DNA from: an uncultured Planctomycetia bacterium
GTDB taxonomy: Bacteria > Omnitrophota > Gorgyraeia > Tantalellales > Tantalellaceae
Assembly: GCA_964572255.1 (NCBI GenBank)
Contig: CAZNEE010000006.1
Span: 11,775 to 75,774, forward strand
Direction: 5' to 3'
DNA length: 64,000 bases
Shown: positions 5,050 through 39,647 of the stretch, piece after piece
How the letters are laid out: each line of letters opens with the position of its first letter
Numbering within the stretch: position 1 is the stretch's first letter
Made by a program: the position numbers and the translations under genes
The notes under the pieces: model-generated
Databases searched by the model: none
What the model saw: only the letters and a program-made list of their open reading frames with translations
Told to the model about the DNA's origin: nothing

Positions 5050-5202
5050 CTTCCACCTCTTACGGCACAAATATACTTTTAAAAACATTATAATAATTAG
5101 GCAAAAAAAAATACGCAGGACACACTTTATGCCCTGATAAATAGCCCCTCTTCTAATTATTATAACGTACGCGCTAATACCTTACTTTACTCTACTATAA
5201 TT

Positions 5203-5255
5203 ATTATACCCCACTTTTCCCTAATATGCCAAAAAATCAAGCTAAATTTTGTGTG
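5203..5255 (-). promoter_or_regulatory. Putative promoter of paralog A. Conserved box B (5233..5255) abuts a -35 TTGGCA (5232..5227), an 18 nt spacer and a -10 TATAAT (5208..5203).
   Basis: The gene-sense sequence is AAGTCACACAAAATTTAGCTTGATTTT-TTGGCA-N18-TATAAT. The same architecture lies at the same distance (~150-200 nt) upstream of paralogs B and C. A T9-GCC box A sits at ~5093-5110. Confidence 0.5.
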
Positions 5256-5304
5256 ACTTAATTTTTGTAAGTTTATTAATTTGAATAGCTTATAGAAACA
5301 AAAA

Positions 5305-19329: not shown

Positions 19330-19486
19330 GAAATTAACCTTTATAAATTACTTTAATAAATGCGCAAAAAAAATTTACATTTTCGATGCTAATATATATT
19401 TACATAGCCCGCAAAAATATAGATATACTTCTACCTTCAAGTTAAAGGAAAAGTATAAGTTTAATGTAACTTTACTCTCATTTACA

Positions 19487-19540
19487 AGTATACATTGCAT
19501 ACATGGGGGTGACCAAAAAAATAAGCTAGATTTTGTGTGC
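19487..19540 (-). promoter_or_regulatory. Putative promoter of paralog B. Box B (19515..19540) abuts a -35 TTGGTC (19516..19511), an 18 nt spacer and a -10 TATACT (19492..19487).
   Basis: The gene-sense sequence is GCACACAAAATCTAGCTTATTTT-TTTGGTC-N18-TATACT. Box A (TTTTTTTTGCGC) sits at ~19355-19375. Confidence 0.5.
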
Positions 19541-19549
19541 TTTAACAGT

Positions 19550-19588
19550 CCGCCCCGAACCAGGGGAGAATCCCCCGATCCGGGGCGG
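19550..19588. promoter_or_regulatory. GC-rich nested stem-loop immediately upstream (gene-sense) of box B of paralog B. It is not followed by a T-tract on either strand.
   Basis: The outer stem is CCGCCCCG...CGGGGCGG, enclosing an inner hairpin AGGGGAGAATCCCC. Its GC richness contrasts with the AT-rich spacer around it. Confidence 0.4.
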
Positions 19589-19692
19589 CATGAGTGTTAG
19601 GAAATACTCGAGAACAGATCTAATTATAGATCACCTTCCAAGTTCCCATAGCTTTCCTCTTTAGTATATCCGTTCCAGATCTGGATATAACA

Positions 19693-23990: not shown

Positions 23991-24188
23991 ATGCAAGGAG
24001 TAGTCAAATGGTTCAATAACTCAAAGGGTTACGGGTTTATTACTCCTGAATCAGGCAGCGATGTATTCGTACATTTCAGCGCGATCCAGGGTGAAGGCTA
24101 CAAATCCCTAAAAGAAGGAGACAAAGTCGAATTCGAAGTTAAAGATGGAGCCAAAGGTAAAGAAGCCATAAACGTAGTTAGAGTATAA
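23991..24188 (+). CDS. cspA: Cold-shock protein, CspA family (65 aa).
   Basis: [50 protein letters not shown] contains the RNP1 and RNP2 motifs (KGYGFI, VFVHF). The RBS is AAAGGAGG. Confidence 0.9.
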
Positions 24189-24260: not shown

Positions 24261-24518
24261 TTAATCTCTGTAAACTTCCCTTCGATGCATCACTTTTAAA
24301 ATAAAAATACAGATTTTCTTATTGTCTATTTCATAGACAATACGGTAGTTGCCAGCCCTAAAAGAATATAATCCCTTAAGTTGAGCTTTTAAGGCTTTGC
24401 CAATAAGAGGATTAGAGGCTATTTCCAGGATAGCGCTTCCTATTTTCTCTTTTATTTTTTGAGGAAGTCTATCAATTTGCTTTTTCGCTTTGGAAGTTAT
24501 TAAGATATGATAATTCAC
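24261..24518 (-). CDS. relE: RelE/ParE-family toxin (85 aa).
   Basis: It is small and basic. LKGLYSFRAGNYRIVYEIDNKKICIFILKVMHRREVY is typical of RelE/StbE. It overlaps the upstream antitoxin gene by 4 nt. Confidence 0.7.
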   Translation of the reverse strand: MNYHILITSKAKKQIDRLPQKIKEKIGSAILEIASNPLIGKALKAQLKGLYSFRAGNYRIVYEIDNKKICIFILKVMHRREVYRD

Positions 24519-24796
24519 TTTTTCTTTGCCCTTTTGGATGTCTTCTTAAAAACTTCCTCAAACGTATAAACTTTTCCCTCTTTCAGTTCTTTTCTGGCTT
24601 CTTCAATATCCTTTATGGCCGCCTTATCGGAAATTATTTCTAAAGTCTCAAGCCATCCTTCGTATTCATCGATGCTCATTATTATAGCTTTGGGCTTGCC
24701 GTTCTTAGATATAATGAAATGCTGCATGGATTCATCCGCTTTCCTGATTATTTCTAATAAATGAGCCTTCGCCTCAGTCACCGTCATGCTTACCAT
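24515..24796 (-). CDS. yefM: Phd/YefM-family antitoxin (93 aa).
   Basis: VTEAKAHLLEIIRKADESMQHFIISKNGKPKAIIMSIDEYEGWLETLEI is Phd/YefM-like. The RBS is AAGGAGG, and the gene is coupled to the toxin by an ATGA overlap. Confidence 0.7.
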   Translation of the reverse strand: MVSMTVTEAKAHLLEIIRKADESMQHFIISKNGKPKAIIMSIDEYEGWLETLEIISDKAAIKDIEEARKELKEGKVYTFEEVFKKTSKRAKKK

Positions 24797-25079: not shown

Positions 25080-25487
25080 TTATTTAAGTTTGGTTTTTAC
25101 ATTTGGAAGATTTAAAAAAAATAAAAGAAATATCCCTACATACCAACCAATTGAAAGTGGCAATTCTATTCTAAAAAGTAAAAAATCCTTTATCCCCTTG
25201 AGAAAATTTTGAGAAATCACTGTAACCGCCCAAACCATTTCTGCGCAAGCATACAATAAAAGACCTTTTCTGCCTATCGTTTTGAGCCTGAATAATAATA
25301 CAGCTGATAAAAAACCAATAGAAGTTGCTATAAAAAGTAACAAGATTATTAAAAATTGTATAGGCTGTTCCTTTATGCCTTGCACGCCAGATTGAATGAA
25401 CATAGTTATTGAAATAAGAGGAAGTGCTATTCGCCAAAGAATAAAGAAAACCAAAATAAAAGCTATTGTTTTTATTGTTTTATCCAT
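25080..25487 (-). CDS. Small 4-TM membrane protein (135 aa) immediately downstream of the YD-repeat giant gene. It is a candidate cognate immunity or accessory protein.
   Basis: It has four hydrophobic helices. Its position directly 3' of the giant gene's C-terminal peptidase-like domain follows the toxin/immunity gene-order convention. Confidence 0.5.
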   Translation of the reverse strand: MDKTIKTIAFILVFFILWRIALPLISITMFIQSGVQGIKEQPIQFLIILLLFIATSIGFLSAVLLFRLKTIGRKGLLLYACAEMVWAVTVISQNFLKGIKDFLLFRIELPLSIGWYVGIFLLFFLNLPNVKTKLK

Positions 25488-25589
25488 ATTAAACCTCTTT
25501 AAGTACTAGTTTATCAAAAATTATACGCTTTTCAATAGTTGATAAGTTTTTCCAAACTTCTCGGTAATTAATAATTACTTGTCAAAATA

Positions 25590-26130
25590 TTATTCTTCAT
25601 AAGCGCCTATAAATATTAAATCAGCAGGTATATCTTGTACATCAATGCCCCACTCCAACATAGTTCCCTTAATGTTTCCCGGGGAAACACGCCAATTGTC
25701 AGTGGTGACACCTGACAAAGGATGGCCGCTTTCCTTGAAAGCGTCGTGCACAAGTTCACTGCAAATTTTTGTATCGTTGTCATTATTGTTTATTCCAAAC
25801 AATCCAGCATAATTGTAAAGTGCTGATTTTTTAAATCGATTTGTATCTGGATTATAGCCATAAGTCACTTTAATCCAGTTAACAGCAGCCCTACCAGCAT
25901 TTTTATCGGAAGTAACTCTTCCTACTTTTATTACAGCATATCCTTCCAAATCTTTCCCGGCCCAGTCTTCGAAAGTGCGCCTTTTTATTCCACCTGGATT
26001 TATATCAATAGCCCATTTGTTGTTCTCCTCATCAACATCAAGAATAGCAGCATGGTTAACTTTTGAAACACTGAATAATCTTATCCCAAAACCTACGGGA
26101 TCAGCTCCTGCAACCATGAGAATATCACCA
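25590..26130 (-). other. C-terminal permuted papain-like cysteine peptidase/amidase domain of the YD-repeat protein.
   Basis: The order is His (VNHAAIL, codon ~26052-26054) before Cys (KICSELV, codon 25761-25763), the circularly permuted arrangement; I recall similar motifs from YiiX/DUF830-like enzymes. Confidence 0.45.
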
Positions 26131-29100
26131 GTTTGTCCTTTTTTAATAATCAAATCAATTGCTTGCGCCTTTTCCCACTTAAGCTCTTCTTCTGTTTTAA
26201 AACCCAGAATTTGTCCCCAACTGGACACCCGCTCAAGTTTATCTTTAAAATGTGTTGAATGTTTAGCCTCTAAATAAAGGTCTTCCAGAGTTTTTCCGTT
26301 GAATAGACTTTTTATGGTTTTGCTTGACTGTTCAGCTATCTTCAGATACTGTTGATAATCAGATTCATGTTTCTCTTTAAAAGCTTTATGGATGGAATCT
26401 AATTTAGTAGATGTCTGATCATGTATAGTATTTTTGCGCTCATTTACATTAAAACCGAGCAGATCTGTGTCTTCTCGAAAATCCTCATTGTTAGTTATAT
26501 TATTGTATGTATCTACCGCCCAATTTTTTGCTGCAGTTACCTTATCTTCCCAGAAATCATAAGCATATTTAACGTCATCGTAAATGCCTGACCAGAAATT
26601 CGCGCCGATGCTTGTTGGGTCGTTGAAATCGGGCCTGATGAAGTCGTAAACTGCGCCGGAAGCGGCGGAGTTCAGTGCAGCTGTATCGACCACTGATGCG
26701 AGCATGGCTCCTGTTGAATAAGTGAGAGACATTTTTGCTATCATTGCCTTGGTTACACCGGGCCCGAAACCATAATATCCGCCAGTTTTAAGCCAGTAAT
26801 AGTTCACAAATTCATCTATTAATTGTCTCCCCACTTCGGGATGTTTCATCTCATATTCCATTATCATCTTTATCCTGTCAACCAGCCGTCCTTGTCCAAA
26901 ACGGGCTCTATATCTAGACATTTCCCACGCTGTATTAATTCTTTTTGCTGTTCGAGTAATATATCCTTCTGCTTTTGCAAGTCCGGAGATAAAGAAGTTT
27001 GCTTCTCTGTTAAGATAGGTATCGGTGACTTTTCCCGCAATTTCCGGAGCCTTTTCCGCCACAAACGATAATCCTTTAACACCGATCTTAACTGCGCCCC
27101 ACGCTTTAAAAATAGCTCCTTCAAAACCTTCGCCTCTTTGGAATATTCCTTTAATCTTCGATACAATTCGCTCTTTGATAAACTGTTCCACTCTTTCATT
27201 AAAGAGTCGAAGTTTGCCGCTAATGTATCCACCCGCTCTATTGTATGCTTGAATGATCCTGTTAACGCTTTTGGATAATCCGCCTGAAAAGAAGGCTTGA
27301 TCCGCTTTAAGCGCCATATTCCGTATTTTAGCTGTAATTTTTCGACCAAAAGACCCATATAATTTACCTCCTATCTTAGATAGAAACGGTTTAGCTTTTC
27401 TCCAACCAAGTTTAGCGAATTTGATCGCTCCTGTCCCTACATAAGCAGCCGCGATATACTCGCCTATCTTGCGCCCGAGGATCCTTATACCGTATACCGC
27501 GTTTCTGGCATTCTTTGAATCCCTGAAAGCCGCCCAGATGTCTTTGCATTCACTTACTAACGCTCTCCACGTGCCGCCTAAGACTTCCTTGAACAATGAC
27601 CGTTCATCCGCGCTAAGTGCAGTATGGACCGCTTTTGCCAATAACACAGGCAGAACCGCTACTGCCGCGGCTGATTCAACGCCGGCTATCATACAGCCTT
27701 CAGTCATGCTTATTCTAAGAACGGTCTGCATCAAGCCATCAAAGGTGCTTATATCATCTACTATGCCGCCGGTCGCATTGCTGAGCTGTTTAGTTAAGCC
27801 TGATAAAAATATGCTTCTTGAACTTAACTCATATCCTTTTATGATGGCGTCATAAATAGGATCTAATTTTTCAGATATTGTATCACGTATGAAGTTTTCT
27901 TGCTCTATTTTTTCCGGTGTTAAAAGGTCTTTGGAAGAAACATTTATCGCCTCACCTTCCCCAATATCGACCAAAGTGTCTCTATCAGAAAAAGCTCTGC
28001 TGTTATATATCTCGAAAATACCTTCTACGGGTATAAGGGATCCGGCTTCCGTGAGCATGCATGTATTGCGGTTTACCTGCACAAAGTCCGGCGCATAGGA
28101 ATCCCCTATTGCCGGTGTCCATATCAGATCGTCAACTGCCCTCATTGTCTTATTAAGAATATTTCCTTTTTCCATGTCCTTGGTAACCGCTTCATTCGCC
28201 ATCCCGTCCGATAGGTTTACAACCGGCAGGAAAAGAGCGCTTCCGGAGCTAACTATGATATGATCTCCTGCAACTCCTATTTCAGACCCATTGAACAGGA
28301 ACAATTGCCGCGTGCTTCCTTCTTCGCCACCGGTAAAAAGCATAGCGCCGAACTTATCAACACCATTTATGTTAAAGAATTTATTGTCATCCACGATAAA
28401 AGATTCCCCTTCGAGCCTGATCCCGATAGAAAATGCTTCATATGAAATAGATTCATTGTCTCCGATCGAAGTGGAGGTATTAAGACCGAACTTTAAGCCC
28501 ATTTCCGCGGCAGGAAGTTCGCCTTTGATCCGAATATCTCCGTCTATCGGAAGAACGCTAAACTGGACTATATTTTTGCCGATTGGATAATAAAAGGTTG
28601 CGCCTACAAATTCTGACAGATCTCCGAATTTTACGGAATCGGGGTCAGCAATAAAATAATTCAGCACCATTTTACCTTCACCCGTCCGGTGTAGCGCCTT
28701 TGTGTCTCCGTTTGCAAGTCTGGCATAAAATGTCTCTTTTCTTGTTACACCGCCCTCTCCTTCCACTGTCCAGAACAGAAAACGCTTCTCTTTCGGATAT
28801 GTGTACTCGATCTTTTTGATGAGGCTTCCTTCGTTATCGTATATCCCTTCGGATACCAACCTCCCTTTGGGATCTACCACCTTATCAATATTACCGATAC
28901 TTCTAATCACATTTTCGAATCTCCGGCATTTTAAGGATAGATCAAGTTTATAAGTTCCGGATGAAACATCCACGGTGAAATTTGTGAATTTTCTCCCCGA
29001 GAGCCTGCTATGAATTTTCGAGTCTTCTCCTATGCGCAGTTTCGCCATGAGATGGGGTAGGGCTGCCAATACCTCGGATCTGATCTTCACATTTATAGTA

Positions 29101-32100
29101 TATTCGCCGCGGTTATCGACGCTAAGCGTAACTTTTTCAAAGTTTCTTGGATCACCGTCTGCAAGTTTTACAAGGTTTTCAAGCTGCTGCCCAAGTTTTT
29201 GCTGTTTTATAGTGTTCTCTTTCAAGGTTTTAATAAGACCCTGGATGCTTCTTTTGTTCAAATTTAAAGAGATCCCGACGACTTCCACCTTGTTGTTCTT
29301 CGGGTCTATATCAAGAACAACATCAAAATGTTTGTTGCGCAGGTCTTTAAAATTTGTCTCTAAATACTCGTTTACCCTGCCGGAAAGTTCCGCATCCTTT
29401 ATGTATGAAGGATCTACGATGACCACTGCGTTGACAAGCTCGCTTTCATTGCCTCTTATCTTTACCATGATCCTTAGATCTTTTATTTTATTGATACTAT
29501 CGATACTTTTATCAAGTATTTGGCTTAAGTTTGATATGTCCTCTCTTTCCTGAAATCCCTTTTGCTTAAGAAAGGATGAAATATTTTTAACATCTATGCC
29601 CGCAAAAAGTGTGCCGGTTTCCAGGTTCATCTCAAAGTCAATCTTGTCTTTAAATCCCAAGCCTGCCCAATCCGCCCAGTTTTTTGCCTGGCCATTAAGT
29701 TTTAGTTCGCTATAATCCGCTTCACCTGTTAAGTATTTATCCCCGTCTCCGATGATCACGTACTCCAAGCTCCGGTTCTCATCCAAGATCATGTTTGCAC
29801 TTAAGGTGAACTTGGCAATCTCATTTGCGAAATATTGCATGAAAGGCCCTAGAGGCAGTTGGTTTTCCCTGTTTATCGGAAAAATATAGCCCAGCTCGTT
29901 ATTAGATCCGTACATTTGACCGTACCCGAGGTCAAATCCAAGTTCCATTACCTTTGAGATGAAATTATTGACCTCAAGCCGGGCCCCATTTGTCATTTCT
30001 TCTCTTTGGATCTGAGCTTCGGGGTCTGTTTTTTCCGGCTGTGTCGGTTTAAATAATTGCCCGACAAGTGTTTTGGAAACCGGGCCTAAGATCTGGGACC
30101 ATGCCGCAGAATTACTTGAAACTTGCGCATCTATTACTCCTATGGCTACGGCTTTTAATGCTGTTCCCGCAACAAGGCCCTCTATATTTTCAAACTGCAT
30201 CTTGCCCGTCATTCCGCCCCACGCATACCCCAAAGCTGTGGATGAAAATGTCGCCAACGATGAGGTTAGGAACATGTTCCAGTCGTTCTGCCTTCCTAAT
30301 TCATATATACCTTCGGAAACAAGCCCCTCTATCACATTTGTGGAAGCATCGAATAAGAATTTATCGAAACTGACCTGTTCGGTAAAAGTGCTTTCGACAT
30401 TCCCGAATATCTGCAGATCATCGAGCCCGAGCCCCTCAAAAATGCTCTCTAACGGAGAAGTTTCACCAAGCAAACCGCCGAATCCCTGCAGCGCATTTAC
30501 GCCTAACTGTACAAAAAGAGACAGCATATTAAACGTATCGTTAGCAATGGCAAGTGAGGTATTGAAAGCAAGTGATGCCGCCCACCCAACGAACGGTATA
30601 GCATTTAATACCGCACTGATTATTGTAGTAATCGCCCTGCCCAAGAAGCTAGACCAGAAGCTTTTCTTTACATCTATATGAAAATATTCATTTTTAACTT
30701 CTTCTGTCTTCTCGCCGTATTTATCGTTCCAGGTGGTTGTTTCGTTGTGCTGGGTATAAGTTACGGTGTTCTTGCCCTGCTTTTCCGACCATGACCTGTG
30801 GTAGTAATAGTGGTATTTTGTCTGGGAAATATTGCCGGCTTCGTCGTAATAGAAATAACTCTCGCTGTAGCTATTACCGTCGATCCTTGTATATTGTCTG
30901 GTAAGCTGGCCGAGTGTGTTGTATGTGGATGAATCGATCCGGGAGGATTCTCCGTCAACTATGGATGTATAGCTATATTCCTGGCCTGATTCGTTATAAA
31001 CTATATCTGTCTTCTCAACAGTCTGGGGATAATCTTCTTTGATGCTTCCGTCTTCAAGCTCTATGGTTACAGTGTCTTTACTGTAAATAACCTGATTAAT
31101 AGCGTTGTAGTTTGTTTCGATCCGTTCGGTGGTTTTTTGCTCCCAAACTCTTGGTTCGCCTATTCCGCGTCCAATAAGACCTTCTTCGACTGTTGTGAAA
31201 GCGATCATCCTGTCAAAATCGTCATAATAAATATCGGATGTAGTTTTTATTGTGAGAAGATCTGCGCCGTCCGGAGCATACATAGCAAGCTCATCGTACT
31301 CGGCATGCCCTACTTCCTGTGCCCAATGGGCTATATTTTTACCTGACCAGGCTCCCACACCGTCATAGTCATCTTCGTCTACGTTCGGGAACCAGGCCTG
31401 AAGATCGGTATCGATCTGCCATATATCTTTAAGCGCCTGAACAACTTCATCTTCCGCAGCCTGGGTTGTTATTTCATCCGTCCACCCTATAAGACGAGCC
31501 CATTCATCGTAGAGCATGTCGTCTCTAACTGTGGTTGTCGTCCTGTCTAGAATATTACCCTCATTATCTTCCCCAAACTCATGAGAGATCTCGGTAAAAC
31601 CGGATACTTTACCGTTCTGGTAAGTCATCTCCGAAACTTGGCGTTCAACGGTCAAGTCCGGGGCCGCGGTAGTCAGGAATGTTTCGCTATAGCCGACAAC
31701 TTTGCCGCTATCATACACTGCATCAGTCCGTGTTGTTGTTTCGGTAAGGTTTAATGTGCCTTCGGGATTTGTTTTATTAACAACCTGAGTAAAGGTATCC
31801 GCCCTGTCTACCGTATATGTCCCTTCCCAATCGGTGATCGTTATGAACTGCCCTGCATCAACAACACTCCCCTGACTAGTTATACTCCAATTATGATCAG
31901 TTACTGTTTCAGTGTATTTAGTTACATTGTTCTTAGAATCGTATTCTTCGGCATCAAAATTTGTAACTGTATGTCCCAGTTGAACAGGATTGAAATAATC
32001 ACTGCCTGGAGTTATCGCTGTTATTTCAAAAACGCGGAGCCAACCGGTTGTATTCCCCCACCCCTGACTGGCGCTTGTACTTCCCCATAAATGCGCCCGT

Positions 32101-35100
32101 ATAGCTGTTACATCCTGGAGATCGACCTCCATCAAAGAAACATCAGTTGTACCTCCGGCTGCACCGCCGCTGTATTCCCCAAAACTGCTTGATCTGCCGT
32201 CTCTTGTCCCGGGTATAACATGCCAGGCATCATCATAATATGCCTGAAGCTCCACATATGCCGAACAGGAGCCTCCATACCTTGTATGTTCTATCGTGGT
32301 AAAAGCATTTGCGTAAAAAGTGATATAGTCAATATCGTAGGCCTGATCAAATTCATGTGTCGAATATAATGTTTTTGAAACATTTACACCACTACAGCTG
32401 GTGCCATAATAAGTACTTCTATCACCGTCATGAACTTTTTCTCCGTCGGCGCCATCCGGTATATGCGTCGTATCCGGCCAGCTAAGAACGTTAGCTATTG
32501 AGGCATACTTAAAAGTAGATTTTTCTTTATCGGTCTGATCAATATTCCCATTATCATCATATGTGGAAGACCATATCTCATCGGTAATAAGAACATCATT
32601 ATTCCCGTAAATTATCTGATCAGCTACGGCAAGCGAGGAAAAATCTCCATTTTCGAAAAGATCAAAATGAGAGAAAAGTTCTTCGTTAGTATAATCTTCA
32701 AATGCGAAAGAAACGGATGCGCAGTTTATCGCCCGGGAATCGGCGAGTTTTTCATCATCGTTGTATTCGCCCGTCCATCTTTCAACATAACTTCTGGAAT
32801 CCTCATTTTTATAACGTGTAAGAACTTCAACTAAATGCTCTTCTTCATCAAACTTCTCTATCCTATCGACTTCAAGAAGCGAACCGTATACATAAAATTC
32901 CCTACGGACTGTTACACTTTCAACCTTGCCGTTATCCCCTTTTACATAAAGGTAAGTTTCCCGTTTTATTATATCTCCTTCTGCATCGGTTATTGCTATA
33001 TCGAGCTTTCTTCTGTCCTCATCATATACGCATGTCGCGCTTGTATCGTCCAGAACACTTTCCATTGTAACAGTGAGCTCTTCATCTTCATTAATCTCGT
33101 AATCGACTGTTGCTATAAGCGTATCTCCATCTCTTAACTCCACTAACTTATTGCCTGAGTAATTGTAGAGGTTGCCTTTGGCATCTGTGATCTTAGATAC
33201 TTCGCCTTCTTCTGTGTATTCAACCTGAGTTTGTCCGTCGGGGATGATCTCCTGATGAGCGGCGATCTTCACAAGTTCCATTAAAATATCTGCCACCGGG
33301 CTGGATGCCGCTTGAGATCCGCTTCTTGGACCGGCGCCTTCAGCTTCCTGGTCACTGATAAGCTCATTTCCCCTGTAAGGAGCCATGGCAGGCGTCCATT
33401 CAAAATAAATGGTCCTGCCGTCCTTATCTGTTATCGAGATGTAATCTCCGTTCGTAAGAACAGTTGTCTGGAGTTCCTTTCTGGAGCTGTATTTATAGTC
33501 GCGGACCGAATGATCGTCCCCGAAATAGATAATTTCGCCTTCTGTCCTTACCTTCTCCTGTATAACCAGATCTTTATCATAAATGATATCAAATATGTAA
33601 GAAGTGCGTTTTCTGCCGTCATTGTAGCCGGTTTGGGTATAAGCGACCATTCTGCCATAATCATCATAGACTATATCGCTTTTTCTTGAATAATCGCCTG
33701 TTCGCGTATATTCCTCATCCATCTCCCAGGCGGTTATTATGCCTGCTTTGCCGTCAGTATTATAATCTTCAAATATGTATTCACGATATTGTGTGTCTTC
33801 GCCCGGATTTATATATGTTTCTATATAGGAAAGGACGTTATCCTTATCATCGTATTGGAATTCATCCTGGATCGTCACCTCGCCGGTCGGGTTGTAAACA
33901 CCGTTCCCCTCATCCCATTCCAGAACGCTTCGCTCGACTTTTCCGTATCTGTCTTTTTCATCGAATTTAGAGAATTTGACATCAAGAGTCTTCGTGAGGA
34001 TATCGGAATTTTCGCTCTCCCATACCCACTCATCACCAGGGGTATATATTTCCTCTATATAGCCTGTATTTCTGCCCTCTTCATCATAAGTGAAATTCTC
34101 TCTTATATAGTAATCCCACTGGCGTATATCATCGAGCTGGTAACTGCAGGTCGTGCCTTCCATGTAATCTATGGTTTCTTCGCCTTTTGCGCCTGTGTAC
34201 CTGCACATGAAGTTCGGGTTAAGGCCATCGGTATCCTTAGAAGCTTCTTCCCCTCCGAAATAAGTATATGCTTTTTGAAGAGCGCCATTCGATGCGTACT
34301 CATATATTGTTGTGGAACTTACCTCCCTTACAGAATCATCCCCGGGTTTAAACTCATATTTCTGTGAAAAACTAACGTATTCTCTTCCTTTCGTCCCTTC
34401 ATAATAAGCGGCTGATTCGATATTAAGACCTTCGGGATTGCCGCTCGTGTCACCGCCTTCATAGGTTTTTGTGCAATACAGTACATCTTCCTTAAAGGCA
34501 TCTTGCGCTCTTACTATTTCATAAACGGCTTCATCATCAACAATTCCTGAGAAACTGTTGTAAAAATAGTAAACACTGTTTTTTACTTCACCCGCATCAG
34601 TGTAATTCAACGCAAAGTCTGTGATCTCATATCCCTGAAATCCTGCATAGTAAGTTTCAGACCGGGTAATAGTATCATCCGGATCTTTTGTCACGCTTCT
34701 TTCAAGAGCCCCGTTAGCTGCATATTCATAATGCGTATATGACTCTATGCTTCCGCCGGATCTGTAATTGGTGGTTAAACTGCTCTTTTCGCTGCCGCTT
34801 AATCCGTCATATGTGGTTTCGTAAATAAGCGTACCATCTACATCCTTTGTAATGCTTTTTGTAAGCGCCCCTTTGGAGTCATACTCATAAGTAGTGCTAC
34901 TGAGGATGCTGCCGTCAAGCGCATATGTTACGGTGCTTAAGGTTTTCTCTCTATTTTTTCTGCCTTCATAAACGGATTCTGAAAGTTTGTTCCCGTCTGT
35001 ATCATTTGTTTCTGTCTTATTCAGCGCACCGGTCATATCATCGTATATATAAAGGATGGTCTCAAGAACATTGCCGGCTTTATCAAAGTTATTGGCAAGC

Positions 35101-37820
35101 GCTATCTTTTCTTCATCTTTAAAACCTTCATATATTGTCACTGAAAGTTTAATGCCGTCGTAACTGTATGAAATTGCCTCTGCCAAGGCACCGCTTTCAT
35201 TGCAATTATAATCTGTTGTTGAGAGGATATTCCCTGCCTTGTCGTACCTGATCACATGAAGTGCCCTTTCCTGTCCTTTCAGTCCTTCATAATCAGTTTC
35301 GGATACCGTTTTATCCTCACTATCTTCAGTAACAACCCTATCTAGCGCACCGTTCTCATCATACTCATAATTAGTTTTATTAAGAATGTTCCCCTCGAGA
35401 TCAAAGCTTGTTGAAAGAACTGATCTCTCCTGTCCCTCAAGTCCCTCATAAACCATAGTGGATAGTACTATCCCGTTCCCATCGGTTGTTAATGTCATGC
35501 CTAATGAACCGTCATCTCCGTCATAACTATAAGTTGTCTCTGTTAAGGTATCCCCTGCATCATCGAATGTCCTGGCAAGATATCCTTTTTCATAATTTTC
35601 TATCCCCGTATAAAGTGTTTCGTACACTTTGAAGCCGTCGTGATTTATGCTTTCCGTACCGGTCAGGGCACCATTTGAAGCATACGCATAATCGGTGGTT
35701 TTTATGATCGTACCTGTAAGATCGTAATCATACGCAATGAAAGGCTTTTCATAATTTTCTATACCCGTATAAAGCGTTTCGGATACCTTTATATTATCCG
35801 CGTTATATGTAACGGTGCTTTCTAAAGCATCTGACAACTTGTATGCATATTGAACTGTCGTTAAAGTATTCCCCGACGCATCAAAATTATTTGTAGTACG
35901 TCTTTTTTCGTGATTTTTCGGTCCTCTATAAGTTGTTTCGGAGACCTTTTCGCCAGATCCGTTTAAAGTTTCAGTCCCTGAAAGTGTTCCGTTGGAGTTA
36001 TAATCATAATTCGTTGCACTCAGAATATTTTCGGCAATATCATACCTTGTAGAATCAACAATTTTCTCCTGGCCTTTTTCCCCGTCATAAGTAGTGAGTG
36101 ATACCCTATTCCCCTGTGAGGTATCATATCCGATATCGCTATCAAGCAATCTGAACGCTTCAACACTTCTTAATGCTTCATCTTCATAGTTATAATCGTT
36201 CCTTACAACAATATTTCCGCTTAAGGTGTCAAATTCGAATATATTTAGAATTTTCTCTTTGCCTTCATCCCCGTCATAATATGTCTCTGACCTTACTTCT
36301 GCCGCTGAAATATCATGGGGATCGTTCGTTCCCACATACCGTGTAACCTTATCAAGCGTATATTTATCACCATCACCACCGATTAGAGGAACATCTGCAT
36401 TCGGCTCGAGTTCATATTCGTAAATATTCACGCTGTTAAGGGTGGTCTCGTCCTCATTGTAGATATATGATCTAATAACATACTGATGACCTTTTAGCCC
36501 CGTAAATTCAGTGCAGCCTTTTAATATACGGGAACCCTTTTTTATACCGTAAGTTCCTATTTTGTCCAATCTGCCGTTCGAGTCATAAACATATTCCGCC
36601 TTCTCAGACGGCTTGTACGCTCCGTCATCATCAAGATAATATACTGAATGCACATAATCTATAAGCTCTTTCCCTTTATTTCCTTTATAATACGTTGTGC
36701 TCAATAAATGTTCGTCACAGGAAACGTCGCCAGCTCGGAAATCATCAAGCTGCGCCGTATAGTCAAGGCCTCTTATATTGTACGACCTTACGTCTTCAAT
36801 CGCGCCCTCGCCGCCGGCGTAGTCGTAACAGTCGAGTTTTCCGGGTTCGTCACTGCTGTCGTACTCGCTTAAGGAATAAACCAGTATCTCTTCACCTTCC
36901 GCTCCCTCATATATATTCTTCCTGATAAGATCGGCATTATTCTCGACTTCTTCCTTCCATAACGGATTTATAGCAGCAAATTCTTTATCGCTGAAATCGA
37001 TCCCAAGCGAAGTTATATCATATGTGTTAACTTCCCTGAGAGCGGTACCGTTCGGATATTCATATACAGATACTTCTCTGGGCTTTCCATCCCGGTAGTC
37101 TGAAAGAATATAATCTATCTTTTCTTCTCCCTGGATACCGTAATAAACGATCGTTTTTATGATAAGTTCATCAATAAGATCCCTGTAATCACCCTCTTGG
37201 AAAGCCGCCAGGACTTTCTCTTCCCCTTCTTCGGAGATCTCCTCGAGTTCATCATTTATCCACTTATTTATCTCCAAGTCGCGAATATCATAAGAAACTA
37301 TCTTATCAAGGGTTTTCCCGTCTTCTTTATACGAATAAACAGAGATCTGCTGAGGATCACCGTTTTCACTGAAATCCGTCAGCGTGTATTCGACCCTTTT
37401 CTCCCCGGAAGAAGCGCCGGATGAGCCGGTCCTTTTCTTGAGAAGAACTTTATCGGCCTGATCGTCTTCGTTTCTCCTGCCGTTCCTGTCGATAAGAAGC
37501 ATGGCTTCTTCCTCGATCATGTTCTTCATTCTTATCAGATCTTCATGCTTTTTCTGAAGAATACGTAAAAGCGCAGGCGACATACGATTCTGTCTATCCG
37601 CCTCCTGCCTATCGGTCAAAAGGCCTTTATAAACAGAATAGTGATATTTGTAATACATCCTGTCTGATGAAAAGGCTATCTGGTTGAATGTGAACGTGAA
37701 AATAATCAGACAGGAAAGGAACTTGAACAATTTCCTGCGCCTTCTTATTGAAGTTATCGCGAGGAAATCCTCGCTCCTTTCTTCACTGGTATTTTTTTCG
37801 TATATTTTTTCGTTATTCAT
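25590..37820 (-). CDS. Giant YD-repeat (Rhs-like) protein (4076 aa). It has a discoidin-like beta region, a hydrophobic segment, a long basic/helical region and a C-terminal permuted papain-fold (YiiX/DUF830- or NlpC-like, His-then-Cys) peptidase/amidase domain.
   Basis: An uninterrupted 12,231 nt ORF with dozens of YD repeats (e.g. YEYASNGAL, TYEYDSKGALTKSITKD, YxYDxxGxL). The C-terminus shows GDILMVAGADP...SKVNHAAILDVD...YAVIKV...KICSELVHDAFKESGHPL. The N-terminus carries RRRRK followed by a hydrophobic stretch. Confidence 0.85.
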   Translation of the reverse strand: MNNEKIYEKNTSEERSEDFLAITSIRRRRKLFKFLSCLIIFTFTFNQIAFSSDRMYYKYHYSVYKGLLTDRQEADRQNRMSPALLRILQKKHEDLIRMKNMIEEEAMLLIDRNGRRNEDDQADKVLLKKRTGSSGASSGEKRVEYTLTDFSENGDPQQISVYSYKEDGKTLDKIVSYDIRDLEINKWINDELEEISEEGEEKVLAAFQEGDYRDLIDELIIKTIVYYGIQGEEKIDYILSDYRDGKPREVSVYEYPNGTALREVNTYDITSLGIDFSDKEFAAINPLWKEEVENNADLIRKNIYEGAEGEEILVYSLSEYDSSDEPGKLDCYDYAGGEGAIEDVRSYNIRGLDYTAQLDDFRAGDVSCDEHLLSTTYYKGNKGKELIDYVHSVYYLDDDGAYKPSEKAEYVYDSNGRLDKIGTYGIKKGSRILKGCTEFTGLKGHQYVIRSYIYNEDETTLNSVNIYEYELEPNADVPLIGGDGDKYTLDKVTRYVGTNDPHDISAAEVRSETYYDGDEGKEKILNIFEFDTLSGNIVVRNDYNYEDEALRSVEAFRLLDSDIGYDTSQGNRVSLTTYDGEKGQEKIVDSTRYDIAENILSATNYDYNSNGTLSGTETLNGSGEKVSETTYRGPKNHEKRRTTNNFDASGNTLTTVQYAYKLSDALESTVTYNADNIKVSETLYTGIENYEKPFIAYDYDLTGTIIKTTDYAYASNGALTGTESINHDGFKVYETLYTGIENYEKGYLARTFDDAGDTLTETTYSYDGDDGSLGMTLTTDGNGIVLSTMVYEGLEGQERSVLSTSFDLEGNILNKTNYEYDENGALDRVVTEDSEDKTVSETDYEGLKGQERALHVIRYDKAGNILSTTDYNCNESGALAEAISYSYDGIKLSVTIYEGFKDEEKIALANNFDKAGNVLETILYIYDDMTGALNKTETNDTDGNKLSESVYEGRKNREKTLSTVTYALDGSILSSTTYEYDSKGALTKSITKDVDGTLIYETTYDGLSGSEKSSLTTNYRSGGSIESYTHYEYAANGALERSVTKDPDDTITRSETYYAGFQGYEITDFALNYTDAGEVKNSVYYFYNSFSGIVDDEAVYEIVRAQDAFKEDVLYCTKTYEGGDTSGNPEGLNIESAAYYEGTKGREYVSFSQKYEFKPGDDSVREVSSTTIYEYASNGALQKAYTYFGGEEASKDTDGLNPNFMCRYTGAKGEETIDYMEGTTCSYQLDDIRQWDYYIRENFTYDEEGRNTGYIEEIYTPGDEWVWESENSDILTKTLDVKFSKFDEKDRYGKVERSVLEWDEGNGVYNPTGEVTIQDEFQYDDKDNVLSYIETYINPGEDTQYREYIFEDYNTDGKAGIITAWEMDEEYTRTGDYSRKSDIVYDDYGRMVAYTQTGYNDGRKRTSYIFDIIYDKDLVIQEKVRTEGEIIYFGDDHSVRDYKYSSRKELQTTVLTNGDYISITDKDGRTIYFEWTPAMAPYRGNELISDQEAEGAGPRSGSQAASSPVADILMELVKIAAHQEIIPDGQTQVEYTEEGEVSKITDAKGNLYNYSGNKLVELRDGDTLIATVDYEINEDEELTVTMESVLDDTSATCVYDEDRRKLDIAITDAEGDIIKRETYLYVKGDNGKVESVTVRREFYVYGSLLEVDRIEKFDEEEHLVEVLTRYKNEDSRSYVERWTGEYNDDEKLADSRAINCASVSFAFEDYTNEELFSHFDLFENGDFSSLAVADQIIYGNNDVLITDEIWSSTYDDNGNIDQTDKEKSTFKYASIANVLSWPDTTHIPDGADGEKVHDGDRSTYYGTSCSGVNVSKTLYSTHEFDQAYDIDYITFYANAFTTIEHTRYGGSCSAYVELQAYYDDAWHVIPGTRDGRSSSFGEYSGGAAGGTTDVSLMEVDLQDVTAIRAHLWGSTSASQGWGNTTGWLRVFEITAITPGSDYFNPVQLGHTVTNFDAEEYDSKNNVTKYTETVTDHNWSITSQGSVVDAGQFITITDWEGTYTVDRADTFTQVVNKTNPEGTLNLTETTTRTDAVYDSGKVVGYSETFLTTAAPDLTVERQVSEMTYQNGKVSGFTEISHEFGEDNEGNILDRTTTTVRDDMLYDEWARLIGWTDEITTQAAEDEVVQALKDIWQIDTDLQAWFPNVDEDDYDGVGAWSGKNIAHWAQEVGHAEYDELAMYAPDGADLLTIKTTSDIYYDDFDRMIAFTTVEEGLIGRGIGEPRVWEQKTTERIETNYNAINQVIYSKDTVTIELEDGSIKEDYPQTVEKTDIVYNESGQEYSYTSIVDGESSRIDSSTYNTLGQLTRQYTRIDGNSYSESYFYYDEAGNISQTKYHYYYHRSWSEKQGKNTVTYTQHNETTTWNDKYGEKTEEVKNEYFHIDVKKSFWSSFLGRAITTIISAVLNAIPFVGWAASLAFNTSLAIANDTFNMLSLFVQLGVNALQGFGGLLGETSPLESIFEGLGLDDLQIFGNVESTFTEQVSFDKFLFDASTNVIEGLVSEGIYELGRQNDWNMFLTSSLATFSSTALGYAWGGMTGKMQFENIEGLVAGTALKAVAIGVIDAQVSSNSAAWSQILGPVSKTLVGQLFKPTQPEKTDPEAQIQREEMTNGARLEVNNFISKVMELGFDLGYGQMYGSNNELGYIFPINRENQLPLGPFMQYFANEIAKFTLSANMILDENRSLEYVIIGDGDKYLTGEADYSELKLNGQAKNWADWAGLGFKDKIDFEMNLETGTLFAGIDVKNISSFLKQKGFQEREDISNLSQILDKSIDSINKIKDLRIMVKIRGNESELVNAVVIVDPSYIKDAELSGRVNEYLETNFKDLRNKHFDVVLDIDPKNNKVEVVGISLNLNKRSIQGLIKTLKENTIKQQKLGQQLENLVKLADGDPRNFEKVTLSVDNRGEYTINVKIRSEVLAALPHLMAKLRIGEDSKIHSRLSGRKFTNFTVDVSSGTYKLDLSLKCRRFENVIRSIGNIDKVVDPKGRLVSEGIYDNEGSLIKKIEYTYPKEKRFLFWTVEGEGGVTRKETFYARLANGDTKALHRTGEGKMVLNYFIADPDSVKFGDLSEFVGATFYYPIGKNIVQFSVLPIDGDIRIKGELPAAEMGLKFGLNTSTSIGDNESISYEAFSIGIRLEGESFIVDDNKFFNINGVDKFGAMLFTGGEEGSTRQLFLFNGSEIGVAGDHIIVSSGSALFLPVVNLSDGMANEAVTKDMEKGNILNKTMRAVDDLIWTPAIGDSYAPDFVQVNRNTCMLTEAGSLIPVEGIFEIYNSRAFSDRDTLVDIGEGEAINVSSKDLLTPEKIEQENFIRDTISEKLDPIYDAIIKGYELSSRSIFLSGLTKQLSNATGGIVDDISTFDGLMQTVLRISMTEGCMIAGVESAAAVAVLPVLLAKAVHTALSADERSLFKEVLGGTWRALVSECKDIWAAFRDSKNARNAVYGIRILGRKIGEYIAAAYVGTGAIKFAKLGWRKAKPFLSKIGGKLYGSFGRKITAKIRNMALKADQAFFSGGLSKSVNRIIQAYNRAGGYISGKLRLFNERVEQFIKERIVSKIKGIFQRGEGFEGAIFKAWGAVKIGVKGLSFVAEKAPEIAGKVTDTYLNREANFFISGLAKAEGYITRTAKRINTAWEMSRYRARFGQGRLVDRIKMIMEYEMKHPEVGRQLIDEFVNYYWLKTGGYYGFGPGVTKAMIAKMSLTYSTGAMLASVVDTAALNSAASGAVYDFIRPDFNDPTSIGANFWSGIYDDVKYAYDFWEDKVTAAKNWAVDTYNNITNNEDFREDTDLLGFNVNERKNTIHDQTSTKLDSIHKAFKEKHESDYQQYLKIAEQSSKTIKSLFNGKTLEDLYLEAKHSTHFKDKLERVSSWGQILGFKTEEELKWEKAQAIDLIIKKGQTGDILMVAGADPVGFGIRLFSVSKVNHAAILDVDEENNKWAIDINPGGIKRRTFEDWAGKDLEGYAVIKVGRVTSDKNAGRAAVNWIKVTYGYNPDTNRFKKSALYNYAGLFGINNNDNDTKICSELVHDAFKESGHPLSGVTTDNWRVSPGNIKGTMLEWGIDVQDIPADLIFIGAYEE

Positions 37821-39264
37821 TTCCCGCCCTCCCTTTTAGAACTTCATCGTTCCTTAAGGATGCTTTTTTAACGTATATTTTCAGAATGGATTCTTTAATA
37901 AACCCATAAACTATTACAGAAAGAATGAATAACTTCACCAGAATATCGCCATTACGGGAATAAAAGGTTTCTTTTTTGATCCTATAAATATTTCCGGTTA
38001 AAAACGTCGCGGTATCCTGCGGAACGGATCTTATTGCCCTCCCGTATGGATTTATTATCTGCGTTACGCCTGTTTGGGCTGCCCTTGCAAGATACCTCAT
38101 GTTCTCTGCCGCTCTTGCTCTTGTAAAAAATGAAGCGTATTTTTTGAACCATGAGTAATCGAGGTCTGTGTTGCTTGAAAGAGAAATAAAATATTCCGCG
38201 CCGCTTTTCACGTAATCTCTGTATATTTTTTCGTTTATCTCTTCCCAGCATAAAGTGATCCCGGCTTGATCCAAATATAATTTTCCGTTATTTTTGCGAG
38301 GGGATATTCCTTCATTAAATATCGCCGGATCCTGCGAATAATACGTATCTTCGACTTTTCCTTGCTTGTCAAAGATGAGGGCTGTATTGTAAAGGATGTT
38401 TTTCTTCTCCTGATCTCTCAGCATTGAACCGATAATGTAGGTGGTTTTTGACCTCTTTATCTCGTCTATGACCGGCCGCATCTTCCCCGGAAATCTGTTC
38501 ACTATATCCACCGGAAAAGTGTACTCCGGCCAAACGACTACGTCTGTTCCTTTATTTGCCGCTTCCCTGCTGAGATCTATATATCTCTTGATCCTTTTAT
38601 CCAGGTTTTCAGTGAAACCGAATATGGTTTTTTCGGGGATATCTCCCTGGATCAGAGCGATCCTTTTCGGCTGTCCATGTATAGATAGATCTGCATTCTG
38701 CGTAAGAGAAAAGACCAAAGATCCCAAAAATGCGATGAAAAGTACGATACTCACAAACAGCGAGACTTTATCCCGCCTCGCCATGTGCCTGGCGATAGCG
38801 GAATTGAAAAGAATTATAAGCAATGTAATGCCGATACTGCCTGTATACCAGATGATCGGTACCGACGTCGGGAACAAAACTCCGATATCAAAAGCGCTGG
38901 CTAAAAGTGATCTGAAATTAAATAAATAAAGCAGTGCCGTCCAAAGAATAGCAGGAACGCATATTGATAATAAGGGATCCTCGAGTCGTTTTATTAATGA
39001 TTTACTTAAAAGCAGGAAACCAGATATGAAACAAGCCGTGATAAGAATACCCGCAAGGTAAATTTCGACCTTGTAGGTTACTATCGGAAGCAATATCACG
39101 GAACACAATACCAAAGGAAATAATACAAGATGAAGATTTTTTATGCGTACTCTCGCGTAGAAAAGAAATAAAAGCGGAATGAGAAAGAAAAAAATGAAAT
39201 AATTGTATATAAGATAAGGGCTGATGAGAAATATGCTTATTACTATAAGCTTTTTGGGGCTCAT
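37813..39264 (-). CDS. lnt: Apolipoprotein N-acyltransferase (Lnt): 8 TM helices plus a CN-hydrolase domain.
   Basis: The N-terminal part is multi-TM. Its motifs are VVVWPEYTFP (catalytic Glu), LIFDKQGK (Lys) and GITLCWEEIN (Cys). Its stop TAA (37815..37813) overlaps the start of the giant YD gene in ATGAATAA. Confidence 0.8.
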   Translation of the reverse strand: MSPKKLIVISIFLISPYLIYNYFIFFFLIPLLFLFYARVRIKNLHLVLFPLVLCSVILLPIVTYKVEIYLAGILITACFISGFLLLSKSLIKRLEDPLLSICVPAILWTALLYLFNFRSLLASAFDIGVLFPTSVPIIWYTGSIGITLLIILFNSAIARHMARRDKVSLFVSIVLFIAFLGSLVFSLTQNADLSIHGQPKRIALIQGDIPEKTIFGFTENLDKRIKRYIDLSREAANKGTDVVVWPEYTFPVDIVNRFPGKMRPVIDEIKRSKTTYIIGSMLRDQEKKNILYNTALIFDKQGKVEDTYYSQDPAIFNEGISPRKNNGKLYLDQAGITLCWEEINEKIYRDYVKSGAEYFISLSSNTDLDYSWFKKYASFFTRARAAENMRYLARAAQTGVTQIINPYGRAIRSVPQDTATFLTGNIYRIKKETFYSRNGDILVKLFILSVIVYGFIKESILKIYVKKASLRNDEVLKGRAGNE

Positions 39265-39342: not shown

Positions 39343-39396
39343 TCTTAAATAAAAAGCCGGACTACCAAACATTAAATTTTATTTGGTAGCCCGGCT
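39343..39396 (-). terminator. Rho-independent terminator ~80 nt upstream of lnt on the minus strand, i.e. downstream of the fab operon.
   Basis: On the minus strand the sequence reads AGCCGGGCTACCAAAtaaaatttaatgTTTGGTAGTCCGGCTtttttatttaag, a ~15 bp stem followed by a T-tract. Confidence 0.65.
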
Positions 39397-39647
39397 ATGC
39401 AAAATGTTCCCTGACCAAGCTTCAGGGAACAAATCTTCATGCAGCATCCGCAGCTTTGTGTCCCTGCCTTACGGCAGGTTTACCTTTTTCAAACCCATAT
39501 TAAAGAACATATTCTTATTATTATTTTACTACTATTTAAATTATTCCACTACAATTAATCGCATTTTATTGTATTTTAGCAAAATTTGTGTGTAATGTCA
39601 ATAAAAAGTTATTTATTTGAAAATATAACAAAAATTTTTTGATTTTT

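Follow-up and report, generated by a model that had tools for sequence, protein, structure and literature searches.

A variant cyclic di-GMP riboswitch precedes lnt and a giant protein with an exchangeable, effector-like tail in an Omnitrophota bacterium

Omnitrophota are abundant, uncultured bacteria that are probably predatory or host-dependent. The window analysed here is a 64-kb stretch of one metagenome-assembly contig (CAZNEE010000006.1) from this phylum, and the locus under study lies on its reverse strand. It consists of lnt (37813-39264, 483 amino acids (aa)), the gene of a giant, predicted secreted protein (25590-37820, 4076 aa), and an orphan open reading frame (ORF) of 135 aa with four hydrophobic segments (25080-25487, from the ORF list and hydropathy), hereafter the four-transmembrane (4-TM) ORF. 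The ORFs of lnt and the giant gene and the translation of the latter were confirmed, in agreement with an earlier note on this DNA, and the 4076-aa gene has also been called on nine metagenome contigs. The ATG of the giant gene (37820-37818) lies within ATGAATAA (37820-37813), whose TAA terminates lnt, and the 8-nt overlap of the two genes is as the earlier note had described it. A variant riboswitch with a terminator was found upstream of lnt. It appears somewhat probable that the locus is a riboswitch-gated operon for Lnt and a giant, Sec-exported, polymorphic-toxin-like effector.

A sigma-70-like promoter was predicted by a consensus scan at 39573-39601 (-) (TTGACA, 17-nt spacer, TAAAAT, with TG; 11/12). 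Between this promoter-like site and lnt, an aptamer of the cyclic dimeric guanosine monophosphate (c-di-GMP)-I-GGC class, a GEMM-I variant, was found at 39381-39493 (-). Its score for Rfam RF03167 was 62.7 bits (gathering score 59; E 1.9e-12), and no other Rfam RNA family was found in the 64 kb. In addition, an intrinsic terminator with a 17-bp stem and a U-run was detected by a terminator scan at 39346-39396 (-). The riboswitch and terminator (39355-39493) were absent from the earlier note and were the most informative regulatory feature that it missed. The aptamer 3' strand AGCCGGGCUACC doubles as the 5' arm of the terminator, forming the expression platform; the strand common to the terminator and the aptamer is AGCCGGGCU, and the platform competes with the aptamer. 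In the minimum-free-energy fold of the leader, the terminator was formed and the aptamer helix P2 was broken, with a z-score of -6.9. The predicted assignment of the riboswitch as c-di-GMP-I-GGC is made with high confidence, and from the modelled folds we infer that the leader is an ON switch acting by ligand-dependent antitermination. According to this mechanism, the sigma-70-like promoter would drive a leader of ~300 nt carrying the aptamer. In the ligand-free state, the aptamer 3' strand would pair downstream and the intrinsic terminator would form. With c-di-GMP or a close relative bound, the strand would be kept in the aptamer, and transcription would enter lnt and the overlapping giant gene.

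Surface and adhesion genes are the classical targets of c-di-GMP riboswitches (PMC7266159). Like the c-di-GMP-I (GEMM-I) riboswitches of surface, adhesion and virulence genes, the element in the window passed the Rfam threshold, occupies a 5' leader, possesses a terminator platform and is followed by the gene of a large, predicted exported protein. It differs from them in its GGC variant class, in its Omnitrophota host, and in that lnt would be gated along with the giant. In the literature searched, no paper linked a c-di-GMP riboswitch to Rhs-like proteins, and riboswitches and c-di-GMP by that name are unmentioned in both papers on Omnitrophota giant proteins.

The family of the giant protein was found to be rare. 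When the last 1200 residues of the giant were the query, HMMER matched 35 of 1.84 billion representative proteins, and four of these 35 were giants collinear over residues 27 to ~3400 with ~39-48% identity. All genome matches were to Omnitrophota metagenome-assembled genomes (MAGs) or to MAGs labelled Planctomycetia (two bore this label). In the related loci L004 and L005, the gene order was plsX-fabH-fabD, a TPR protein, the riboswitch and the giant, and in L006 it was a TPR protein, the riboswitch, the giant and two small 4-TM ORFs. L007, which is identical to L009, contained plsX-fabH-fabD, lnt, a 10-nt gap and the giant, with no riboswitch. L010 possessed lnt joined by an ATGA overlap to a giant of at least 5875 aa (2121-19745) that runs off the contig. 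The extra length of the L010 giant came from an expanded 53-aa repeat region, where overlapping tblastn segments fell on the same query repeats. L008 is a complete Omnitrophota chromosome in which the start of the giant gene is lost to an assembly gap (100 N), so that the upstream region is uninformative. A distance tree of a 1000-residue block placed L010 as the outgroup and L007 as sister to the riboswitch-only clade, and grouped the window with L008. As a separate observation, an HD-domain protein and a PAS histidine kinase are encoded a few kb downstream of the giant in L006 (14521-19937).

In L004, L005 and L006, the giant gene was immediately preceded by the aptamer, with RF03167 scores of 67.5, 61.2 and 61.5 bits, respectively (gathering score 59). 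In the four loci with an intact riboswitch, the aptamer core was common and the terminator stem was kept with compensatory changes. A custom covariance model built from these four riboswitches scored the L004, L005 and L006 aptamers at 87-99 bits. Furthermore, it revealed a decayed full-length riboswitch in L010 (565-651), ~70 nt upstream of lnt, with 21.9 bits and an E of ~1e-3. This relic had six broken pairs and no U-run terminator; it was undetected at Rfam thresholds and was seen with the custom model only.

The C-terminal part of the giant appears to be exchangeable. A junction motif, PDFNDPTSIGANFWSGIYDD, at aa 3730-3749 (26574-26633, -) was conserved in the homologues P0002, P0003 and P0022, with the consensus PDFxDPxSxGANFW[ST]G[VI][YF][ED]D, and the tails of the family diverge beyond it. 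The homology to P0002 and P0003 stops at aa ~3783-3795. The window protein ends in a permuted papain domain, P0002 carries GHSFG (GxSxG-like), P0022 carries HETGH (HExxH), and L006 has another tail. The tails of P0002, P0004, P0005, P0008, P0009, P0013, P0022, P0032 and L006 matched no Pfam family; therefore, GHSFG and HETGH are motif-level hints only. At the junction, a GC content of 0.40-0.46 gives way to 0.35-0.385 from ~26500 downward, and the 4-TM ORF has 0.30-0.31. Acquisition of the tail and the downstream DNA as a cassette would fit this drop. The exchangeable-tail architecture is assigned with high confidence from the sequence comparison. A conserved body collinear over aa 27-3400, a junction motif and differing tails are the features by which polymorphic toxins are recognised, and all three occur in this family.

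The tail of the window protein contains a permuted NlpC/P60 domain of the YaeF/YiiX type (MEROPS C92) at aa 3880-4076 (25593-26183, -), identified by profiles, AlphaFold2 and Foldseek. The proposed catalytic residues are His3923 (26052-26054), Asp3939 and Cys4020 (25761-25763), all on the reverse strand. Among 15 sequences, His3923, Tyr4002, Cys4020 and Pro4047 were invariant, and position 3939 was Asp, Glu or Gln in all. The AlphaFold2 model of the domain showed the permuted papain fold with a predicted local distance difference test (pLDDT) of 84.3. Foldseek matched it to 3kw0 (BcPPNE; E 1.6e-6, template-modelling score (TM-score) 0.62) and 2if6 (YiiX; E 2.4e-5), both with a probability of 1.00 and an identity of 18-20%. 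The homologues P0019 and P0025 passed PF05708 with E of 3e-9 and 1.5e-7 (37.6 and 32 bits), respectively. Because the C92 family was reached through these intermediates, membership is stated at the superfamily or clade level; the assignment of the C-terminal domain as permuted NlpC/P60 has high confidence. The earlier note had recognised a His-before-Cys, YiiX-like permuted papain domain, and this view was borne out by the profile match (NF008552, E 1e-7) and the two solved structures. The structure model and the Cys/His conservation that it had proposed as checks also came out in its favour.

In previous studies, permuted NlpC/P60 families were reported to have lipid-binding pockets and lipid-directed chemistry (PMC3142127), and Tox-Act1 was described as a permuted NlpC/P60 effector of a type VI secretion system (T6SS), a phospholipase that acts in the periplasm and is paired with a two-helix membrane immunity protein (PMC12994826). 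By analogy with Tox-Act1, LRAT/HRASLS and YiiX/BcPPNE, the most probable reaction of the enzyme is cleavage or transfer of the fatty-acyl chains of membrane lipids in the target-cell envelope; a lipid-targeting effector role is predicted with moderate confidence. Compared with YaeF/YiiX proteins (2if6, 3kw0; PMC3142127), the window domain shares the fold, the order of His and Cys and a profile match with an E of 1e-7. It differs in being a fused terminal module with conflict-type neighbours, whereas those are small stand-alone proteins; its identity to the solved structures is 18-20%, and its scores lie below the curated family cutoffs. Compared with Tox-Act1/Imm-Act1 from Salmonella (PMC12994826), it shares a permuted NlpC/P60 core with the His and Cys that are essential in Tox-Act1, an antibacterial effector, and each is followed by a gene for a small membrane protein; the lipid-targeting chemistry is known for Tox-Act1. 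The Tox-Act1 clade is separate from YiiX (PMC12994826), whereas the window domain matches YiiX/BcPPNE best. Moreover, the window domain is the tail of a 4076-aa protein with a predicted Sec export signal, not a T6SS cargo.

The conserved partner of the closest relatives of the window domain also differs from Imm-Act1, being a PD40 beta-propeller and not a membrane protein. Of the seven other occurrences of C92-domain homologues, five had a PD40/Tricorn_N beta-propeller gene directly 3', and a sixth probably had one. The five were P0006, P0036, P0014, P0011 and P0027, and their partners (L012 12214-13188, L016 1195-2154, L011 1290-1805, L015 4473-4826 and L017 3783-4295) carried a signal peptide and were mutually homologous, with E from 1e-10 to 1e-92. 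A search of a word-indexed protein database with the C92 domain alone gave one match. P0006, a protein of 2734 residues that combines true RHS repeats with a C39 peptidase, ends in the same domain type. The recurrence of the PD40 gene as a neighbour strongly supports the view of the C92 domain as a conflict-type effector domain. The C92 domain and the PD40 beta-propeller are thus a candidate toxin-immunity pairing, as predicted from gene order, and this pairing was not described in the literature searched.

The small ORF downstream of the giant was confirmed as the earlier note had reported it, with 135 aa and four hydrophobic segments. It begins 102 nt past the giant stop and has its own Shine-Dalgarno sequence. 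No family was found for it in Pfam, NCBIfam, PHROGs or PADLOC. The genes downstream of the giant vary with the tail: the window has the 4-TM ORF, L006 a pair of 4-TM ORFs and L007 a TM plus HEAT protein. A relationship between the window and L006 4-TM ORFs was considered and rejected; the matches were driven by composition only. None of the seven other C92 occurrences was followed by a 4-TM homologue, and the PD40 partnering makes clear that these domains normally go with something other than a small membrane protein, which weakens an immunity role of the 4-TM ORF. Therefore, the earlier proposal of an immunity gene at this position was not upheld, and confidence in it is low. The ORF may be an alternative protection factor, similar to the small 4-TM ORFs that follow a different tail in L006. 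From the wider proposal of an effector with cognate protection, the exchangeable effector-like module was retained and the 4-TM ORF as its protection was not.

The N-terminus of the giant has a 26-residue extension followed by a Sec-type signal or anchor at aa 27-52 (37665-37742, -), which consists of a basic stretch (RRRRK), a hydrophobic core and a small-residue site (AFS|SD), and then a conserved Asp-Arg; it was recognised by hydropathy, and the cleavage site is a prediction. This segment was kept in P0002, P0003, P0010 and L006. Cys37 was not conserved, being Trp in three homologues, and no conserved lipobox was present. The N-terminus thus looks like that of ordinary Sec export without lipidation. 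The idea that the giant is itself a lipoprotein on which Lnt acts was rejected because Cys37 is not conserved, and the suggestion that lipidation or lipoprotein status matters for deployment found no support.

The region from aa ~140 to 2380 (30681-37403, -) is rich in Tyr, Asp, Glu, Thr and Gly, and its composition profile indicates a Tyr/Asp/Thr/Gly-rich beta region with YD-like hairpins. Eleven of the 12 YDxxG motifs of the giant lie in it. A regular array of 53-aa repeats at aa 515-1190 (34251-36278, -) comprises nine strong and three partial units with the consensus YxGxxGxEK...FDxxGNxL..TxYxYDxxGAL...SET. The AlphaFold2 model of aa 480-1480, made with five aligned homologues, was all-beta with four 8-residue strands per 53-aa unit; the pLDDT was 85-90 over aa ~580-1220 and the predicted TM-score (pTM) was 0.43. 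With this model, the first 34 Foldseek matches were all YD shells, namely T6SS Rhs effectors, Tc-toxin BC components, teneurins and SGS1, with E down to 1e-25 and TM-scores of only 0.09-0.24. For the whole giant, no Pfam family was found at E<=0.01. In a fragment search, RHS_repeat (PF05593) matched one stretch, aa ~2300-2335, with an E of 0.076 and 13.9 bits against a cutoff of 22. NCBIfam gave no YD_repeat (TIGR01643) or Rhs match at E<=1 and no match to the Rhs core (TIGR03696), and the only DPxG[LWFIM] motif was DPVGF at aa 3907, inside the enzyme domain. It is concluded that aa ~140-2380 is YD-like at the hairpin level without a demonstrable Rhs shell, and that the giant lies outside the Rhs family. 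The earlier claim of more than 2000 aa of YD repeats thus held in the 53-aa array and in the YDxxG motifs, and did not hold at the level of RHS and YD profiles, which gave no significant match. The statement that the DPxGL autoprotease motif of the Rhs core is missing proved correct, and the profile search suggested with it revealed no standard Rhs core.

Compared with Rhs/YD toxins, the giant shares a long antiparallel beta-hairpin array with YDxxG-like turns, which gave its best local structural matches, and a variable C-terminal enzyme after a conserved junction; the same domain also ends a true RHS-repeat protein. It differs in its profile-invisible repeats, in the four-strand unit of 53 aa and in the absence of an Rhs core and aspartyl autoprotease. 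Moreover, ~1350 aa of other modules precede the toxin junction, and the N-terminus carries a Sec signal.

These ~1350 aa between the beta region (~2300 aa) and the junction are made up of family-specific hydrophobic, uncharacterised and basic modules. A Gly/Ala-rich hydrophobic segment at aa 2385-2600 (30021-30668, -), with hydropathy peaks at aa 2393-2425 and 2545-2567, was kept in the homologues. The comparison of homologues showed conserved middle modules at aa 2640-3330 (27831-29903, -). Within these modules, a domain of ~330 aa (aa 2640-2990, 28851-29903) also occurs stand-alone with signal peptides in P0024, P0031, P0035, P0016, P0021, P0026 and others, and ends in a conserved F-x-V-D-V-x-S-G-x-Y-x-x-D-x-S-L-K motif. 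Neither this domain, searched as a profile, nor aa 2601-3330 had a Pfam or PDB match. Hydropathy and charge further indicated a hydrophobic helix at aa 3372-3402, then a basic G/K-rich region to aa ~3720 (26661-27713, -). The stretch at aa 3401-3600 has a net charge of +22 and counterparts in P0002, P0003, P0004 and P0009. The hydrophobic stretch and the basic G/K-rich segment of the earlier note were therefore found again at aa 2393-2425, 2545-2567, 3372-3402 and 3401-3600. Its figure of ~1700 aa after the repeats was also correct, with the enzyme being only the last ~200 aa. A discoidin-like region that it had noticed obtained no Pfam or PDB sequence match, and the stretch in question lies where the family alignment shows little conservation.

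The locus is surrounded by the housekeeping genes ruvB, queA, tgt, secDF, recJ, recG, coaD, pta-ackA and rpmF-plsX-fabH-fabD. Downstream of the 4-TM ORF, the RelE/Phd pair of the earlier note was identified as a toxin-antitoxin pair of Phd/YefM (24515-24796, -) and a ParE/RelE-type protein (24261-24518, -). This pair lies in an AT-rich stretch (GC 0.30-0.36) and has a promoter-like site of its own (24866-24838), and a cold-shock-domain gene (23991-24188, +) adjoins it on the opposite strand. Two more very large ORFs lie directly downstream, at 19693-23454 (-, 1253 aa) and 5305-19329 (-, 4674 aa). They have a common N-terminal domain of ~540 aa with 51.6% identity, are unrelated to the 4076-aa protein, and matched no Pfam family except for a weak Polbeta nucleotidyltransferase match. 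Elsewhere in the window, a PAS-only protein with a diguanylate-cyclase-sensor-like match is encoded at 55586-57358 (-).

The identity of the lnt product, as given in the earlier note, was supported by a CN_hydrolase match (E 1.9e-20), 7-8 N-terminal hydrophobic helices, and best PDB matches that were all solved Lnt structures (E 2e-12). Its score against TIGR00546 ('lnt') was 125.1 bits, just below the cutoff of 132.9; the WPE motif aligned, and the LCWE motif was seen by eye. According to the ORF list, start/stop overlaps are frequent in the window, at ~6 of 23 same-strand junctions. Because such overlaps are common, the overlap indicates one transcription unit and no special relationship between lnt and the giant. 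Therefore, operon membership was retained from the coupling proposed earlier, and a special link was not. The adjacency was not unique to this genome: it was found in three of six lineages, namely the window, L007/L009 (10-nt gap) and L010 (ATGA overlap), and the tight spacing was kept in all three, with a start/stop overlap in two. The giants of L004, L005 and L006 occur without lnt, which argues against a functional link, and in L004 and L005 a TPR protein is found in place of lnt. The plsX-fabH-fabD block was syntenic in L004, L005 and L007. In addition, the presence of lnt does not track the tail type, as the lnt-linked L007 giant has a non-papain tail. The adjacency is probably ancestral. 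In the simplest reading, riboswitch, lnt and giant are an old arrangement; lnt dropped out of it in one clade, whereas the riboswitch disappeared from L007 and degenerated in L010. On this reading, lnt would be an old operon partner of the giant; confidence in a functional link is low.

Concerning lnt only, the linkage may be inherited synteny without function, with lnt as part of the rpmF-plsX-fabH-fabD neighbourhood, and our judgement on this is evenly divided. The syntenic plsX-fabH-fabD block, the TPR protein at the lnt position in L004 and L005, the overlaps at about a quarter of the same-strand junctions in the window, and the lack of co-variation between lnt and tail type are in agreement with it. 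However, the linkage persists between giants that are ~40-46% identical, and the three lineages with this linkage have all retained its tight spacing. Moreover, the riboswitch or relic is placed upstream of lnt and not between lnt and the giant, which puts lnt inside the regulated unit. A functional alternative is suggested by Staphylococcus aureus, in which the YiiX-like enzyme LnsA, of the permuted NlpC/P60 type, depends on the membrane protein LnsB for the N-acylation of lipoproteins (PMC7387801). The tail and the small membrane protein might accordingly form a lipoprotein or lipid acylation module that works with or against Lnt; this is considered very improbable, and so, to the same degree, is its example of Lnt repairing effector damage, in which the lnt linkage would be functional. 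The precedent carries out the same reaction as Lnt (PMC7387801), lnt adjoins the giant in three deep lineages (overlapping start/stop codons in two), and an intact riboswitch in the window or a relic in L010 stands upstream of lnt. However, the lnt-linked giants differ in their tails, so that lnt does not track the papain domain (that of L007 being non-papain), L004-L006 are without lnt, and the giant has no conserved lipobox. Moreover, the 4-TM ORF is not similar to the LnsB/CPBP families or to anything else, and plsX-fabH-fabD is a plausible housekeeping neighbourhood for lnt. In both systems, a permuted NlpC/P60 domain of the YiiX-like kind goes together with a multi-pass membrane protein, and the LnsA/LnsB reaction is that of Lnt (PMC7387801), whereas the 4-TM ORF lacks sequence similarity to LnsB, and the giant tail is exchangeable while lnt is not. 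The likeness is circumstantial, and by analogy a LnsA/LnsB-type acyl-chemistry connection is conceivable. In a further reading, which we regard as improbable, the riboswitch, lnt, the giant and the 4-TM ORF would be one unit around acyl-chain chemistry. A cyclic-dinucleotide signal would then turn on the giant, which would bring a YiiX-type acyl-hydrolase or acyl-transferase to envelope lipids or lipoproteins of another cell, together with the Lnt of the producer, which would protect or prepare its own envelope as an enzymatic immunity, for example by re-acylating lipoproteins. If true, the orphan GGC variant would gain a defined regulon in an uncultured, host-dependent phylum.

For the locus as a whole, the riboswitch-gated effector operon was weighed against other explanations. 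In the operon reading, the beta region and the hydrophobic and basic modules would serve as scaffold and delivery apparatus, the exchangeable YaeF/YiiX-type tail would attack membrane lipids in the target-cell envelope, and the 4-TM ORF would at best be a non-canonical protection factor. Several results weigh against this reading. L007 has lnt and the giant with no riboswitch found by Rfam, and to our knowledge the ligand of the GGC variant has not been experimentally established. The enzyme domain scored below the cutoffs of NF008552 (E 1e-7, 31.3 bits against an equivalog cutoff of 279) and PF05708 (E 0.03, 14.8 bits against 27). No secretion genes were found in the window, nor was a PD40 homologue. 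The 4-TM ORF had no homologue in the related loci, and the word-indexed protein database returned only the ORF itself. Furthermore, the hydrophobic segments of the giant could be true transmembrane stretches by which the protein is retained in the envelope of the producer, and the effector activity, the secretion route and the target are predictions from sequence, models and analogy. Some of these points fit a surface fibre or attachment organelle for a host-dependent or predatory life, anchored to the producer and made on a cyclic-dinucleotide attachment signal. The terminal enzyme would then remodel the prey or host envelope, no immunity gene would be needed, and the 4-TM ORF and the toxin-antitoxin pair would be unrelated. 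The taxon, the internal hydrophobic segments, the absence of the canonical PD40 partner from the window and the classical place of c-di-GMP riboswitches on surface and adhesion genes (PMC7266159) are consistent with this, as are the published Omnitrophota giants, which have RHS-like beta helices, many transmembrane segments, c-di-GMP links and a proposed role in predation (bioRxiv 10.1101/2023.11.21.568195). However, an exchangeable enzymatic tail after a conserved junction and a conserved partner gene beside homologous domains are traits of conflict effectors and not of adhesins, and no adhesin-type domain was detected by Pfam. The fibre, which overlaps with the effector operon more than it excludes it, is judged unlikely both as a whole and in its envelope-remodelling part, with a chance well worth keeping in mind.

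A canonical Rhs/YD polymorphic toxin, with a closed YD shell, Rhs core autoproteolysis, an encapsulated short toxin and T6SS-like delivery, would account for the Foldseek matches, the top ones being all YD-repeat shell proteins, and for the variable C-terminal tails among the members. However, there was no significant RHS_repeat or YD profile match and no Rhs core or DPxGL motif. Moreover, the ~1700 aa from the repeats to the C-terminus are far beyond the capacity of a shell, the N-terminus carries a Sec signal and is not of the PAAR or VgrG type, and no T6SS genes are nearby. The defining features of that family are contradicted, and this explanation, which we hold to be extremely improbable, was rejected.

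A previous study of Omnitrophota giants described RHS-like beta helices and a c-di-GMP link via pilZ and GGDEF (bioRxiv 10.1101/2023.11.21.568195). Compared with these giants (the Archaeovorin and Dockerin types; same source), the window protein shares the phylum, the RHS-like antiparallel beta structure and the internal hydrophobic segments, and a c-di-GMP connection exists in both, through pilZ/GGDEF there and the riboswitch here. It differs in being ~10 times shorter, in having no glycosyl-hydrolase, dockerin or SecA-like domains and in showing no regularly spaced external helices; the exchangeable C-terminal tails are not described for those giants.

A conserved body, a junction motif and an exchangeable enzymatic tail are known as a general scheme, and what is new here looks like a variant of polymorphic-toxin systems. 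It would widen the polymorphic-toxin architecture to a YD-like scaffold with exchangeable tails, no Rhs core, Sec export and long intervening modules. The C-terminal domain family and its PD40 beta-propeller partner form a candidate toxin-partner pair that is new as far as the literature searched shows. In addition, a variant c-di-GMP-I riboswitch is tied to a specific conserved gene family, and this context may be useful for working out the sensed ligand. For the Omnitrophota, the locus would be a compact, 12-kb candidate weapon with a recognisable enzymatic warhead and a regulatory input, and thus may serve as a testable model of attack or attachment in this phylum.

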